A stretch of 64,000 bases of DNA from Escherichia coli. Lineage in GTDB: Bacteria; Pseudomonadota; Gammaproteobacteria; Enterobacterales; Enterobacteriaceae. Positions within the stretch are counted from its first letter, which is position 1. Each line of letters opens with the position of its first letter. Shown here one piece after another: positions 53,641 to 59,600 of this stretch. The position numbers were made by a program. The stretch is from NCBI RefSeq assembly GCF_017348835.2, contig NZ_CP071375.1, one strand, 5' to 3'.

Positions 53641-56600
53641 TTAAAATCGCCAATCATCTCCAGCGGATAGCGTTGCCCGCTTTGATAACAACGGATACTT
53701 TCCGCCACCAGCGGCGAACGAAGATTTGACGCCTTTAAAATTTCTTCGGCGCTGACCCAACGACAGCAGTCGATATCGCTGTCATGAGGCTGGGTCGGGC
53801 ATATTTGCTCAAGCTCAATGGCAAAGAGGAAACGCAAAAACGGCGTTTTATCTGGCGCAATCCACTGATGCATACGAATAAAGTGTTGCGGCTGCGCGTT
53901 GATGCCGGTTTCTTCCCACAGTTCACGGGCGGCGGCTTCCACTAAGGTTTCATCGGCTTCCAGATGCCCGGCAGGTTGGTTCCATAACGCTTTACCATTA
54001 ATCGTCTCTTCAACGACTAAAAATTTGCCTTCTGCGTGCACCACGCAAGCAACGGTAACGTGCGGTTTAAACATTTTGCATCCTTAATCTGTCACTTCTC
54101 GCCATTCGCCATTGGCAAGATTATCCAAAGAGTAATCTCCCATCGCATAGCGAATCAGTCGCAGCGTGGGGAAACCAACATGGGCGGTCATGCGGCGCAC
54201 CTGGCGATTACGTCCTTCATATAAGGTGATCTTCAGCCAGCTGGTGGGAATACTTTTGCGTTCACGAATTGGTGGATTCCGCGGCCATAACCACGCGGGT
54301 TCGTTAACCAGCTCCGCGCCTGCGGGCAGGGTAGGGCCATCATTTAAGGTTACGCCATTGCGCAAGGCTTCAAGTGCGTCTTGTGTGGGAATACCTTCCA
54401 CCTGCACATAATAGATTTTTCCGGTGCGTTTACCCGGCTGGGTTAAACGCGCCTGCAACGCGCCGTTATTGGTCAGCACCAGCAACCCTTCGCTATCGCG
54501 GTCAAGGCGACCTGCTGCATAAACGCCCTGAACCGGGATGAATTCTTTTAATGTTTTGCGTCCGGCTTCATCGGTGAACTGCGGAAGAACATCGTAGGGT
54601 TTATTGAACAGGATCACACGCGTGGGCTGGTTTTCAGGTTTACGCCTGGTAGAACGTTGCGAGCTGAATCGCTTAACCTGGTGATTTCTAAAAGAAGTTT
54701 TTTGCATGGTATTTTCAGAGATTATGAATTGCCGCATTATAGCCTAATAACGCGCATCTTTCATGACGGCAAACAATAGGGTAGTATTGACAAGCCAATT
54801 ACAAATCATTAACAAAAAATTGCTCTAAAGCATCCGTATCGCAGGACGCAAACGCATATGCAACGTGGTGGCAGACGAGCAAACCAGTAGCGCTCGAAGG
54901 AGAGGTGAATGGAAAGTAAAGTAGTTGTTCCGGCACAAGGCAAGAAGATCACCCTGCAAAACGGCAAACTCAACGTTCCTGAAAATCCGATTATCCCTTA
55001 CATTGAAGGTGATGGAATCGGTGTAGATGTAACCCCAGCCATGCTGAAAGTGGTCGACGCAGCAGTCGAGAAAGCCTATAAAGGCGAGCGTAAAATCTCC
55101 TGGATGGAAATTTACACCGGTGAAAAATCCACACAGGTTTATGGTCAGGACGTCTGGCTGCCTGCTGAAACCCTTGATCTGATTCGTGAATATCGCGTTG
55201 CCATTAAAGGCCCGCTGACCACTCCGGTTGGTGGCGGTATTCGCTCTCTGAACGTTGCCCTGCGCCAGGAACTGGATCTCTACATCTGCCTGCGTCCGGT
55301 ACGTTACTATCAGGGCACTCCAAGCCCGGTTAAACACCCTGAACTGACCGATATGGTTATCTTCCGTGAAAACTCGGAAGACATATATGCGGGTATCGAA
55401 TGGAAAGCTGACTCTGCCGACGCCGAGAAAGTGATTAAATTCCTGCGTGAAGAGATGGGCGTGAAGAAAATTCGCTTCCCGGAACATTGCGGTATCGGTA
55501 TTAAGCCGTGTTCTGAAGAAGGCACCAAACGTCTGGTTCGTGCAGCGATCGAATACGCAATTGCCAACGATCGTGACTCTGTGACCCTGGTGCACAAAGG
55601 CAACATCATGAAGTTCACCGAAGGCGCGTTTAAAGACTGGGGCTACCAGCTGGCGCGTGAAGAATTTGGCGGTGAACTGATCGACGGCGGCCCGTGGCTG
55701 AAAGTTAAAAACCCGAACACCGGCAAAGAGATCGTCATTAAAGACGTGATTGCTGATGCATTCCTGCAACAGATCCTGCTGCGTCCGGCTGAATATGATG
55801 TTATCGCCTGTATGAACCTGAACGGTGACTACATTTCTGACGCCCTGGCAGCGCAGGTTGGCGGTATCGGTATCGCCCCTGGCGCAAACATCGGTGACGA
55901 ATGCGCCCTGTTTGAAGCTACCCACGGTACTGCGCCGAAATATGCCGGTCAGGACAAAGTTAACCCAGGCTCTATTATTCTCTCTGCTGAGATGATGTTA
56001 CGCCACATGGGTTGGACCGAAGCCGCAGACCTGATTGTTAAAGGTATGGAAGGCGCAATCAATGCGAAGACCGTAACCTATGACTTCGAACGTCTGATGG
56101 AAGGCGCTAAACTGCTGAAATGTTCAGAATTTGGTGATGCGATCATCAAGAACATGTAATCACTACATGTGTTAAATATTGAAACGGGCGTATAACACGC
56201 CCGTTGTTTTATTTATGTGGATATTATTAATAGCATATCGAGCATATTTATATAAAACCTATTACTTGAGCCCATATGGGCATATTTTTATAATACAACT
56301 CTTATGCAAACATTTATTTGTTATTTCGCTTTCTCCTGGAGGACACTCTTGACTGCTTTTGAGTAAACTCCATAAATTCTTGTTGAATGGCGCAATGTTA
56401 TAAATAGTAATAGGATATTCTTTATCCTTAAGGATAATACCAGGCTTAACAGGTGTAAATATACTTCCAGGAGGAAGAAATATAGTAGATTGATACCAGA
56501 TGATCATTTTCATATCACCCCATATGGCTGAAAAAGATATGCCGCATGTAGGTTGAATTACCGTGTCAATTACTACCCACTTCATTTGTTATGTCTTATC

Positions 56601-59600
56601 CCACGGTATTTAATATAGTTCATTTGGAAGTTCATTTCTTTATTTTGCATATGAGTATATTACCCCTTCAAAAAATAAATTAATTAAAACGATTGCTTAT
56701 ATAAAACAAAATTTAAAGCAAGGAATCTCAATGGATGTTAAACAAAATGAGATTTAGTGAAAACAATAAATTATTCACTTCGTTTTAGATTTGTTTAGCT
56801 ATAATGTTATACATTCAAATGACTGAACATCCTGTAATTAAAGCATCGCCTTTATGCTACTTTGTGCCAATTTGCTAAACATTATGGTTGCCTTTTTATA
56901 TAACGATAATAATGAATATAAGCATGACATGAGAATAAGGTTTCAATTTTTGAGTTATATAGGAAAGGTTTAACCTGTTCCTGGCTAAAATACATATAAC
57001 TGGATGATGACTAAACCAAAACACATGTGCGTTAAGTATTGAAACGGGCGTATGGCACGCCCGTTGGTTTTATAAATATGTTAACCGTTATAAAATAACG
57101 TATAGAAAGTCAAGTGATCACATTTCAAATATCAATTTGATAGTATTGGCCTGGTGATTATTTATGGGTAGCAATAAAAGGACAGTATTTATCATCCATA
57201 GGGATAGTCTCTGTACTATTATTCCCATTATGCTAATGTCTTACTGAATTATGAAGCATTTCTTAAGCATCCAACTTTAGCTAGATTAATGGTTTATTAT
57301 TTTCTACATCTTCAATATATAAAAGCGTATTATCAATGGCGTAGTAACTGCGTTTGTTATGATTAACATCAGTAACCCACCGGAAAACGCCCGCGTCTGC
57401 CAGTGTTGAACAGTATTCCCGAAATGTAGATTTTCCGCAAATATGAAGCAATGCGGCCTCTTTTATTTTAGCAGGGTTCTTGGTCGTACTAACTTTTAAC
57501 AGGTTCCTGGTTCCTCTTAATAACAAAACCGTGTCATCGTGAGTAATAATTCTGATGTTATCCGTAGCCAGATAATAAATGTAATGTGCAATACGGTGAT
57601 GTTTTAATTCTGAATAAAACCAGGAGAAGTTTTGCTCTTTTCTCACTTGCTCAAACATCTTTTGAAAAACAACGACCTGATCCATCAGGATAATAACCTC
57701 TTGTTAGTTGTGAGACTGCGTAGTGTGCACGATCGGTTTTACCACTTCAATCTGGTCTGTCCTTTGGCTGTGATATGTACAGAGTGTGATAGAGGGATTA
57801 CCTGAATTCTCCCGGTGAGCATTTTGCAACGGACCAGCTCCGGTACAAACGCTGTTGTGGGTTCAGATTATAACATTCTGTCTAAGGGGTGGGATAAAGG
57901 TGAAATTAGGGGGCATGAAAGATGACTTTATAACCTTGCTCACCCCAGTGTTGTAAAAGTTCGTTTTGCCTTCTCGTTGGTGCCATGCCTGTCCAGACAA
58001 TCAATGTTTGCGTCGGGAACAGTTCCGGGCGCGGCGATTCAATGGGATCAGCAAGAACAGAAATGTGCCATCCTGACAATGATAAACGCCATGCTTCCAG
58101 CCACAATCGAGCTCTCTCTTCAACATTCCACGCCATCAGAATGGCTTCTTTACCGGGCTTACGGCGCATTTCGAAAAGCGAGGCTGCTGCATATTCAATT
58201 AATGCGCCGTCAAACATACTGCTCATAATGCGGGAGGTGTTGTGATCAAGCACGAGACGCTGGCGAACAGGAAGGTAAACATGATTAATCAATTGATCTA
58301 CTGGGTACTCTCGACCCAGTGAAATAATTCTCGCGCGTAGTTTGGCAGGATTAGCCATACGAAGAATTGACATCATCTCTTCTTGCAGGCGGCTCCAGTC
58401 ATCTTCCGTATCCTGGCTGGTGGTTTCCAGTAATGCTTTAACTTTGCCTACAGGGACGCCATTACTTATCCAACGCTTGATCTCTTCGATACGTTGTATG
58501 TCTTCTTCATCAAAGAGTCGGTGTCCGCCTTCACTGCGCTGTGGTTTTAACAAACCGTAGCGGCGTTGCCAGGCCCGGAGAGTGACAGGATTAATCCCGC
58601 AACGTTCAGCAACATCACCAATGCTGTAATAAGCCACAATTCCTCCTTGCGGTCACAAATCTCCGTCGCCTGTACACGACCCAATAATACTTTGTACAAT
58701 ATACGCTAAAATTGTACAAAGTATAAATAAGATTTCAGCTAAATTGGATGAAACATTATTTTTAATGTGGATTAAATTAAAACATAACGTATTCATTTTC
58801 ACGATGATTTACTGAAATAATGTGCTGAAAATTATTTTTTCTCCGGCCACGCAACTGAAGGGATACCATTCAATTTAGCTTTAGCAAACAGATCCCCTTG
58901 AAACATCTCAATTCCTGCGGATTCAAGCCACATCCACTCTTCTGGTGTTGCCACGCCCATAGCACTGACTTGAATTTCAAGTGATGTACAGCATTTTATG
59001 ATCGCCTGAATAATTGCCTGCCGTGGTCCGCTTTTATGAACATTGGTAATCAATTCCTGACTGATTTTAATTCTGTCAGGCTGGAAGCGTGACAGGAGTA
59101 ACAAACCAGCAAAACCTGCGCCAAAATGATCAATTGCTACACTGATACCGGCAGCCTTTAGCGATTTAACCGCTTCGGCAAACTCATCAAACCGAGATAT
59201 GACTTCACTTTCAGTAAATTCAACGATGATTTGTTCAGGCACCAGAGCATTGGCCTTTATTTCATCAAGTAAAAAAGAGACTGCGTCAGGCTCGTTAACC
59301 AGGGTCATAGGTAATAGATTGATTGAAATCATTTTATCACCGAGCTCAAGTGCGTGTGCCATCGCGAATGCAAGCGCCTTACTTTTAAGATCCGCTGTGT
59401 AGATTTCCTCGTCTTTACGCTGCCCAACCGCTATAGCTGACGGGCTGTCTTCATTTTTTTGCACAATGGCTTCAAAAGCGATTATCCGCCGCGATAAGGG
59501 ATCGACAATAGGATGAAAGGCAAAGTGGTCGTTTATATTTGGTGAAAGAGCACAGGAATCAAGTTCTTTATCAGATCCGTCAGCGATAAAAAGCCAGGAG

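Follow-up and report, generated by a model that had tools for sequence, protein, structure and literature searches.

The icd terminator and its second copy

The window, a 64,000-nucleotide stretch of Escherichia coli DNA (contig NZ_CP071375.1), carries an intact icd gene followed by iraM, ymgL and ycgX, all three on the opposite strand (Table 1). IraM is an anti-adaptor that stabilizes the stress sigma factor RpoS; many pathogenic E. coli lack it. The initial annotation had described two imperfect direct copies of the icd terminator bracketing iraM and its AT-rich upstream region, with icd intact and e14 not inserted here. This description holds: the copies lie within 1–3 nt of the positions it gave, no prophage follows icd in the window, and the DNA between the copies, iraM and its upstream region, has 27–34% GC compared to ~51% in icd. 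The AT-rich tract runs on beyond copy 2 through ycgX, and provirus predictions in IMG/VR reach equally far, to position 57685.

Table 1. Features of the icd–ycgX interval, with positions in the window.
Feature	Position	Strand	Description	Basis
icd	54909..56159	+	intact, 416 aa	ORF list; icd annotation in matching E. coli records
last 165 nt of icd	55995..56159	+	duplicated by e14/21-type integration	crossover point at left edge
copy 1	56165-56212	+	probable working icd terminator; hairpin 56183-56205, loop ATAAC, T-run 56206-56212	
iraM	56262..56585	-	107 aa, PF11183; putative surviving cargo gene	ORF list, annotation, PHROG 4407 match
22-codon upstream ORF	56582..56650	-		long-allele alignment and translations
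iraM upstream region	56614..56975	.	homologous, in the long allele, to the sequence upstream of its ymgB-like gene	
ymgK	56838-56882	-	within the iraM upstream region	position from annotation; translated
copy 2	57023-57073	+	probable relic of the displaced former icd end; hairpin 57043-57065, loop ATGGC	
right flank	57074..57100	.	common to copy 2 and the single copy of iraM-less strains	alignment
ymgL	57118..57228	-	small protein, 36 aa	annotation in matching records; translation
ycgX	57281..57685	-	DUF1398, phage-related; far side of copy 2	PHROG 413 match, E=1e-41

Copy 1 starts 6 nt past the icd stop codon; copy 2 has the same orientation, at a distance of 860 bp. Aligned as ACATGTG--TTAAATATTGAAACGGGCGTATAACACGCCCGTTG-TTTTAT (copy 1) and ACATGTGCGTTAAGTATTGAAACGGGCGTATGGCACGCCCGTTGGTTTTAT (copy 2), the two are identical at 45 of 48 aligned bases and differ by two small indels; a repeat finder returned the ungapped match as 88% over 43 nt. 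Both match a terminator consensus, with a 9-bp stem containing 6 GC pairs and then a T-run, and each stem has a predicted folding energy of -14.2 kcal/mol. We give almost no weight to a chance match, or to a dispersed repeat of the REP, BIME or MITE-like kind, with no connection to icd integration, even though the element resembles such repeats in its small size, its hairpin and its presence in more than one copy. Allowing up to three mismatches, a 30-nt core occurs exactly twice in the window, compared to 0.00 occurrences expected from 100 shuffles, and the repeat is found at a median of 2 and a maximum of 4 places per E. coli genome, with phage-borne icd ends the likely source of the extra places. 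Searching Rfam gave nothing above threshold, the matches being tpke11 over copy 1 (E=0.083) and spurious snoRNAs. On reading the sequence for integron attC sites or gene cassettes, we found no RYYYAAC...GTTRRRY core sites in the copies and no integron integrase nearby.

The repeat in the window has sharp edges. To the left of ACATGTG, local alignment (2000 shuffles, four lengths) detected no significant similarity between the copy 2 side and the icd coding end, and a 15/25 match left of copy 2 in a MAFFT alignment is indistinguishable from chance. Neither the left flanks of the two copies nor their right flanks beyond the T-run are significantly similar to each other. The repeat includes no icd coding sequence, and its start lies away from the e14 crossover (55995). 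There are no integrase or excisionase ORFs between the copies, and no P'-like arm follows copy 1 (permutation p ~0.9). Within the right flank of copy 2, TGTTAACCGTTATAAAAT is similar to the e14-type P' arm TGCTAACGGTTATCAAAAT (permutation p ~0.0–0.06).

The stem of copy 1 is invariant in eight E. coli lineages, and the hairpin that follows icd in three Citrobacter genomes, E. albertii and E. whittamii has the same stem. That of copy 2 is broken by independent changes in four of nine allele lineages: K-12 has an A.G mispair (-9.1 kcal/mol), L067 an A.C, L072 a C.A and the long allele, described below, an A.C. Because its stem is mutated in several lineages, copy 2 looks like a relic; judging by these sequences, copy 1 is probably the conserved icd terminator today, and copy 2 a decaying remnant. 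Whatever its origin, copy 2 might instead be selected as a working terminator or insulator that would shield the iraM promoter from minus-strand transcription of ycgX and ymgL. It sits directly downstream of these two genes, its terminator-like 9-bp stem is perfect in the window and intact in five of eight short-allele lineages (those with the 860-bp arrangement of the window), and iraM-less strains have one hairpin between the convergent icd and ycgX. The independent stem-breaking changes, in a repeat whose other copy never varies, argue against selection of this kind, as does the minus strand after the hairpin, which offers only UUUCAAUACUU, a weak U-tract. We regard a selected role as terminator or insulator as unlikely.

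Alleles of the locus across E. coli

Two other alleles bear on how the repeat arose. In 1037 of 5426 complete E. coli genomes (~19%), B2-type strains included, there is no iraM and a single hybrid copy, which has the sequence of copy 1 through the loop and then the T-run and right flank of copy 2. The initial annotation had held that a second copy standing here in all E. coli, irrespective of iraM, would speak against its reading; the iraM-less genomes, being single-copy, do not show such a pattern. At the other extreme, 19 of the 5426 genomes carry a long allele (L058–L065 and L073–L075 in our set), in which a 6-kb island lies between the same two copies. The left part of this allele runs icd, terminator, e14-type P' arm, a 455-aa ORF, a transposase remnant and trkG; its middle comprises iraM' with its own terminator, a ymgB-like gene and the upstream region; and its right part consists of 'gctATCAAGAATATGTtAA', a spacer, TTAAGTACTG with the hairpin, ymgL and ycgX.

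Both edges of the long allele carry traces of icd-type integration. The P' arm after the left copy is 87–89% identical to the attL of K-12 and TUM9812. The right copy is preceded by the last four codons and stop of icd, ATCAAGAATATGTtAA: the 20 nt to its left match the icd end at 16 positions, and the wider match is 80–82% over 66 nt (E 1e-9 to 1e-11). About 16–20 nt of icd coding sequence are thus left at this copy, which has a TTAAG change in common with copy 2 of the window. As the right copy of the long allele keeps icd codons, we take copy 2 to be the displaced former end of icd. The mnmA–rluE region of long-allele genomes is ~96% identical to that of the window, compared to 98–99.5% for other E. 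coli and 92–94% for E. whittamii and E. albertii. Because the long-allele lineage is so diverged, the two-copy arrangement seems older than E. coli proper.

The long allele has no integrase, excisionase or recognizable P arm, and a transposase remnant is all that it contains of this kind. A 260-nt stretch that separates the upstream region from the icd remnant is unmatched in phages or in the K-12 e14 ends, and so we identified no P arm. The 455-aa ORF has no relatives in IMG/VR, where an intact parent phage was not found either. The e14-type junction of the long allele could also stem from an unrelated prophage that came later and lost its right end by deletion.

The 860-bp form in the window is homologous to the parts of the island that adjoin both copies, and its junctions have short sequence matches at their ends (GTTTTT at the left junction, CAT at the right one). 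The iraM upstream region is 72–73% identical to positions 7253–7606 of L065 and to L057. Aligned to the long allele, the first 11 codons of the 22-codon ORF upstream of iraM correspond to the 5' end of a deleted ymgB/ariR-like gene. The stop codon of this ORF overlaps the iraM start (ATGA), and its frame is open in all eight short-allele lineages sampled. Part of the iraM leader and promoter region therefore seems, from these alignments, to derive from the deleted gene, an origin that may bear on how iraM is regulated.

The flank of the iraM-less allele is 92–98% identical to short-allele flanks versus 60–66% to that of the long allele. In keeping with the P'-like sequence in this right flank, BLAST alignments of the B2 allele to the attL of the long allele run 40 nt beyond the T-run. 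Both the short and the long alleles contain iraM and copy 2. Since its flank is of the short-allele type, the iraM-less allele probably arose by a later deletion between the repeats. Site-specific excision is less likely, and so is an ancestral empty site, which would need two independent insertions of related DNA at one point.

Alternatively, the single-copy, B2-type state could be original, and an 860-bp iraM islet with a diverged terminator-like sequence could have entered later by one crossover at the terminator, either homologous or made by an integrase using the hairpin as its site. This would create two copies directly. Indeed, the iraM-less and short alleles differ in exactly one repeat unit and the DNA between the copies, copy 1 is conserved and icd-type while copy 2 is diverged, as expected if copy 2 came with the insert, and the hairpin may represent a natural dyad of the kind often used by integrases. 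However, iraM, copy 2 and the same right flank are already present in the long allele, which is deeply diverged, and the flank of B2 strains falls with the short allele. A crossover confined to the hairpin also leaves the icd codons at the long allele's copy 2 unexplained, and no integrase is present. We find an original single-copy state distinctly unlikely.

More doubtful still is that the icd terminator hairpin serves as a second recombination site, besides the e14/21 crossover 165 nt upstream, at which a small iraM module is reversibly inserted and excised. If it did, the iraM-less state of B2-type (and perhaps other) strains would represent recurrent gain and loss that retunes RpoS stability, and not one old deletion.

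Phage attachment at icd and a probable origin of iraM

In K-12, e14 begins 165 nt ahead of the icd stop codon, a distance equal to the length of icdC. Contigs that span prophage flanks begin to align to the window at 55995–56001. The last 165 nt of icd are unusually variable, being 91–97% identical between strains versus 97–99% for the preceding 400 nt. Phages that integrate here bring an icd 3' end together with its terminator, and host homology ends at the T-run, as for e14 in K-12. Phage 21, 4A7 and ev207 are 100% identical up to the T-run, and other attL junctions show the same match followed by divergence. On its right-hand side, the repeat in the window stops where the phage-borne icd terminator stops. 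A hairpin scan also recovered loci in E. albertii, E. whittamii and Citrobacter. Five of these six outgroup loci have an e14-like or O157-type attL flank right after the hairpin, and in C. amalonaticus a convergent omptin-like gene follows it. Because prophage or other non-syntenic DNA directly follows icd in these genomes, they do not show the ancestral neighbor of icd.

The IraM family is restricted to Escherichia. Every other member that we examined, including those of E. albertii and other E. coli, lies in a lambdoid prophage between the Q antiterminator and holin genes, and these prophage homologues have 55–73% identity to IraM. IraM homologues occur in 46 phage records, mostly at 60–80% identity, adjoining stx2AB on the opposite strand. 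Homology between iraM and the phage copies is confined to the coding sequence (71–74% DNA identity), and neither the hairpin nor the iraM upstream region matches the flanks of the phage-borne homologues. We found no free phage with iraM beside an icd-type attachment site; in IMG/VR, the only copy-2-type sequence is host flank at the edges of provirus predictions integrated in icd.

We consider it fairly probable that the repeat is the fossil of a duplication made when an e14/phage 21-type lambdoid element integrated into the icd 3' end, and that iraM is leftover cargo of that element. The initial annotation had read the repeat as a scar of integration or excision at the icd 3' attachment site, and iraM as possible cargo of an element targeting icd. 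This interpretation is supported by the phage-borne icd ends, by the long allele, by the prophage location of all other IraM-family genes found and by the single copy in iraM-less genomes. Under this model, the incoming element would have carried its own last 165 nt of icd and terminator. After integration, the phage-borne end would complete icd on the left, and the resident icd end with its terminator would be pushed beyond the insert. Copy 2 would then be the displaced resident end, copy 1 the terminator now serving icd, and iraM a leftover ‘moron’ of the inserted DNA. Three deletions could have reduced an island of the long type to iraM alone: one between the GTTTTT runs of two terminators, one inside the ymgB-like gene, and one between two CAT motifs that removed the icd remnant. 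The repeat in the window would lack the 165-nt crossover start because of such later deletion. Finally, iraM would have been lost from the ancestor of B2-type strains when the two copies recombined, leaving one hybrid terminator. The scar is recognizable only through the long allele. Successive insertions appear to have left a stack of remnants downstream of icd.

This duplication of the icd terminator around iraM has apparently not been described so far. Work on iraL, found on the potB island of CFT073, treated IraL as horizontally acquired, reported that iraM and iraL are each missing from the other's strain, and placed iraM ‘on e14’ (PMC4045071). Contrary to that report, iraM lies just outside the annotated right end of e14 in K-12. 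Our model gives iraM a concrete origin, as cargo of an icd-integrated lambdoid element and not as part of e14, and suggests that recombination between two 50-nt terminator copies is the route by which ~19% of sequenced strains lost it. What is known of phage integration is unchanged; this is a case history, not a new mechanism.

Comparison with known systems

One close parallel is e14/phage 21 itself, in which direct repeats from the icd 3' region likewise surround inserted DNA. K-12 shows a fresh version one step leftward, in the order icd, e14, icdC, copy 1, iraM, copy 2. The e14 repeat begins 165 nt inside icd, and the prophage between its copies has intE and xisE, whereas in the window only the ~50-nt terminator part is left, with no recombinase and one gene enclosed; in the long allele, the terminator and four codons are left. 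Degenerate genomic islands at tRNA genes also have imperfect ~50-nt direct repeats, derived from the 3' end of the target gene, around AT-rich foreign DNA, and such repeats can mediate loss of the island. In contrast, the target here is a protein-coding 3' end plus terminator, and the island is 860 bp long and has lost its integrase.

As a small gene family found only in Escherichia, iraM resembles the morons of lambdoid phages, and its other members are isolated, opposite-strand genes of the late region, for example by stx2AB. Unlike these, the icd-linked iraM lies outside any recognizable prophage, and its flanks are unrelated to those of the phage copies. Finally, the iraM-less allele resembles the products of deletion between short direct repeats, whether homologous or slippage-type: as far as the alleles can be compared, its structure appears to be exactly what recombination of copy 1 with copy 2 predicts.

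The repeat around iraM and phage integration at icd

As the initial annotation had claimed, the icd terminator element recurs around iraM and icd itself is intact. Alignment of the two direct copies gives 45 identical bases out of 48, plus two small indels, and both were scored as terminator-like. Their 30-nt core occurs at just these two sites in the 64-kb window, where chance would predict none. Within the window, we found no significant similarity between the surroundings of the copies to the left of ACATGTG, nor between their flanks to the right of the T-run. GC content is 27-39% from copy 1 through ycgX, compared with 51% in icd, and the stretch is 100% identical to E. 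coli strain PE164. Copy 1 (56164-56233, plus strand) also has a sub-threshold match to the Rfam sRNA family tpke11 (22.3 bits, gathering score 43, E=0.083), which probably just mirrors its terminator shape.

Layout of the iraM region in the window
Feature	Position	Strand	Remarks
icd	54909-56159	+	intact
Copy 1	56165-56212	+	begins six bases past the icd stop codon
Copy 1 hairpin	56183-56205		9-bp GC-rich stem, loop ATAAC, then GTTTTAT
iraM	56262-56585	-	upstream DNA ~435 bp, very AT-rich
22-codon ORF	56582-56650	-	unannotated; TGA stop overlaps iraM ATG (ATGA)
Copy 2	57023-57073		hairpin 57043-57065, stem as in copy 1, loop ATGGC, tail GGTTTTAT
ymgL	57118-57228	-	beyond copy 2
ycgX	57281-57685	-	beyond copy 2
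bluR, bluF		-	beyond copy 2, after ycgX

In K-12, the annotated start of the prophage e14 lies 165 nt ahead of the icd stop codon, and the opposite end of e14 is occupied by the displaced host icd end, the 165-nt icdC, which is directly adjoined by copy 1, iraM and copy 2 in that order. Thus positioned, iraM is just outside the annotated end of e14, unlike its placement 'on e14' in an earlier paper (PMC4045071). The e14-borne replacement of the icd end has a terminator of its own in diverged form, AACGGGAGCGTAACGCTCCCGTT, followed by a phage arm with repeated GTTATCAAAA motifs. Hairpins identical to that of copy 1 are found at other prophage junctions, in O157:H7 and Citrobacter, and in phage genomes carrying the icd 3' end (phage 21, 4A7 and ev207). 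As all of these junctions diverge from the host immediately past the T-run, the segment duplicated on phage integration has the terminator as its distal part. The window's repeat ends where this segment ends, but does not start where it starts (55995). The final 165 nt of icd (55995-56159) are 91-97% identical between E. coli strains, versus 97-99% for the preceding 400 nt, a step that coincides with the e14/21 crossover point; this variability fits repeated replacement of the segment by integrating elements. Separately, predicted proviruses integrated at icd in IMG/VR (L076-L089) routinely overrun the true attR, taking in icdC, iraM, copy 2 and ycgX and stopping at 57685, so that iraM and ycgX are tallied as viral in such catalogues.

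A rare long allele of the locus

Among 5426 complete E. coli genomes, 3848 carry the window's short allele, in which the two copies enclose iraM (at least 80% query coverage), and 1037 have an iraM-less junction with a single copy, including the type strain ATCC 11775 and APEC O1:K1:H7; CFT073 is also described as being without iraM (PMC4045071). In yet other genomes, some O157:H7 among them, icd is directly followed by a prophage, and both iraM and ycgX are missing. In E. coli E118 (L071, NZ_CP049196.1; copy 1 at locus ~240-262), the stem is unchanged and the loop is GTTAT, the reverse complement of ATAAC; the icd terminator hairpin appears to have flipped in place.

A search with IraM turned up a 73%-identical variant, whose contigs have the same neighbourhood with a larger insert. 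This long allele is carried by 19 of the 5426 genomes. In window orientation, its representative L065 begins with icd, the terminator and ~40-85 nt of e14-type P' arm, the phage-side sequence adjoining a phage-borne icd end (87-89% identity to the K-12 and TUM9812 junctions). Past the arm is a 455-aa ORF of unknown function, which a transposase remnant separates from trkG. Next come iraM', equipped with a separate terminator of its own, and a ymgB/ariR-like gene. These are followed by a homologue of the window's DNA upstream of iraM; ~260 nt for which we found no match; 'gctATCAAGAATATGTtAA cgctataccta TTAAGTACTG AACGGGCATATAACACGCCCGTTG'; and finally the right flank, ymgL and ycgX.

Ahead of the right-hand hairpin of the long allele stand the last four codons of icd (I K N M) and the stop, with one base inserted, and by BLAST 66 nt from window position 56145, inside icd, match this right copy at 80-82% identity (E 1e-9 to 1e-11). 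Because a TTAAG change is common to the right copy and the window's copy 2, the two correspond. From this correspondence and the icd codons, we infer that copy 2 is a displaced icd end, as at an attR junction, and that all DNA between icd and copy 2 was inserted. The proposal of an integration scar at the icd 3' end is supported, with the refinement that the scar is not the e14 crossover site but the distal remnant of an icd-end duplication. The scar is recognisable as such only through this rare longer allele.

Over mnmA-rluE, identity to the window is ~96% for long-allele genomes, 98-99.5% for the rest of E. coli and 92-94% for E. whittamii and E. albertii. Some carriers are labelled 'Escherichia sp.'. 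The long allele looks like a sister lineage's version of the locus. Its trkG (L065 4285-5742), with the transposase remnant beside it, has ~90% DNA identity to trkG elsewhere in many E. coli genomes; in K-12 that gene lies in the Rac prophage. Five long-allele loci (L058-L061 and L064; e.g. L058 17049-19195) have extra genes between rluE and icd, encoding DUF8209, DUF1493 and an IS3-type transposase, which the window lacks.

Probable shortening of the locus, probable loss of iraM and the state of copy 2

One block of homology between the short and long forms starts immediately after the T-run of copy 1 (56212-56224), spans iraM and ends at 56634; another occupies 56614-56975, with further homology up to 'ccaaaacacat' at 57024. 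Judging from this alignment, the short form would differ from the long by three deletions. The first would have occurred between two GTTTTT runs, one belonging to the icd terminator ('cccgtt GTTTTT ttgttagc') and the other to the separate terminator of iraM ('ggggca GTTTTT ggtagat'), where the short form reads 'cccgtt gtttta tttatgtggat'. With it would have gone the phage arm, the 455-aa ORF and trkG, along with the separate iraM terminator. The second would have taken most of the ymgB-like gene, leaving the start codon and first 11 codons. The third would have joined the long form's 'ccaaaacgCAT' to a second CAT just ahead of the hairpin region, yielding the window's 'ccaaaacaCATGTGcgTTAAG' and taking out the icd remnant together with the 260 nt that had no match; its endpoint would set the left limit of the window's repeat. 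The first 11 codons of the 22-codon ORF are the 5' end of the ymgB/ariR-like gene, of which the long allele has an intact version. The ORF's frame is open in 8 of 8 short-allele lineages sampled, including K-12, and it may encode a leader peptide translationally coupled to iraM.

The single copy of the iraM-less (B2) allele follows copy 1 through the loop and then has copy 2's T-run and right flank. Relative to the short allele, it lacks exactly one unit of the repeat together with the intervening DNA. In the flank to the right of copy 2, identity among the window, K-12 and the B2 allele is 91-99% per 100 nt, the B2 flank being if anything nearer to K-12 than the window's is; the long-allele flank has 60-66% identity over the first 200 nt, 80-88% over the ycgX 3' end and at least 94% beyond ~500 nt. 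Both deeply diverged haplotypes have iraM, copy 2 and the right flank, and in its flank the B2 allele resembles the short one. On this comparison of alleles, the simplest reading is that B2-type strains lost iraM through recombination between the copies; that they preserve an empty site fits less well. The iraM-less allele is, then, probably a secondary deletion.

The stem of copy 1 is invariant across eight lineages of E. coli, and icd-linked hairpins in Citrobacter and in other Escherichia genomes have it unchanged, whereas that of copy 2 has independent disruptive changes in K-12 (A.G, -9.1 kcal/mol), two further comparison loci (L067, A.C; L072, C.A) and the long allele (A.C), and the copy 2 U-tract is weak on the minus strand. 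Together, these differences argue for relaxed constraint on copy 2, which, where its stem is intact as in the window's strain, may still keep a residual role in terminating ycgX-ymgL. The flank to its right, TGTTAACCGTTATAAAAT, is shared with the B2 single copy and is similar to the e14-type arm, TGCTAACGGTTATCAAAAT, which lies equally far from the hairpin. In the first ~40 nt (window 57079-57097; comparison locus L003 2719-2737), 14 of 17 bases are as in this arm, with the same spacing, and a C. amalonaticus flank is also similar here. Possibly the host segment that phages capture reaches ~40 nt beyond the terminator, or else the ymgL-ycgX side, whose gene ycgX matches PHROG 413, could itself be left over from an older prophage.

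IraM homologues in prophages

In the IraM search, the family (PF11183) had matches in Escherichia only; PHROG matches were obtained for both IraM and YcgX. In lambdoid prophages, members with 55-70% identity are located between the Q antiterminator and holin genes, on the opposite strand; they adjoin stx2AB in Stx2 phages and, in E. albertii prophages, an ORF6N gene. They share only coding sequence with the window. These prophage members, and the inserted nature of the DNA between icd and copy 2, support the suggestion that iraM arrived as cargo. In the Stx2a phage Stx2_EH2201 (L007 5001-5324) and four other loci (L008, L051-L053), a homologue ~65-70% identical directly follows stx2B, on the opposite strand, and precedes a nanS-p-like esterase gene; most matching Stx2/Stx2c phage records leave it unannotated. 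Our search of the accessible literature found no description of an iraM/icd terminator scar. The scar is a new example of a well-known type of structure.
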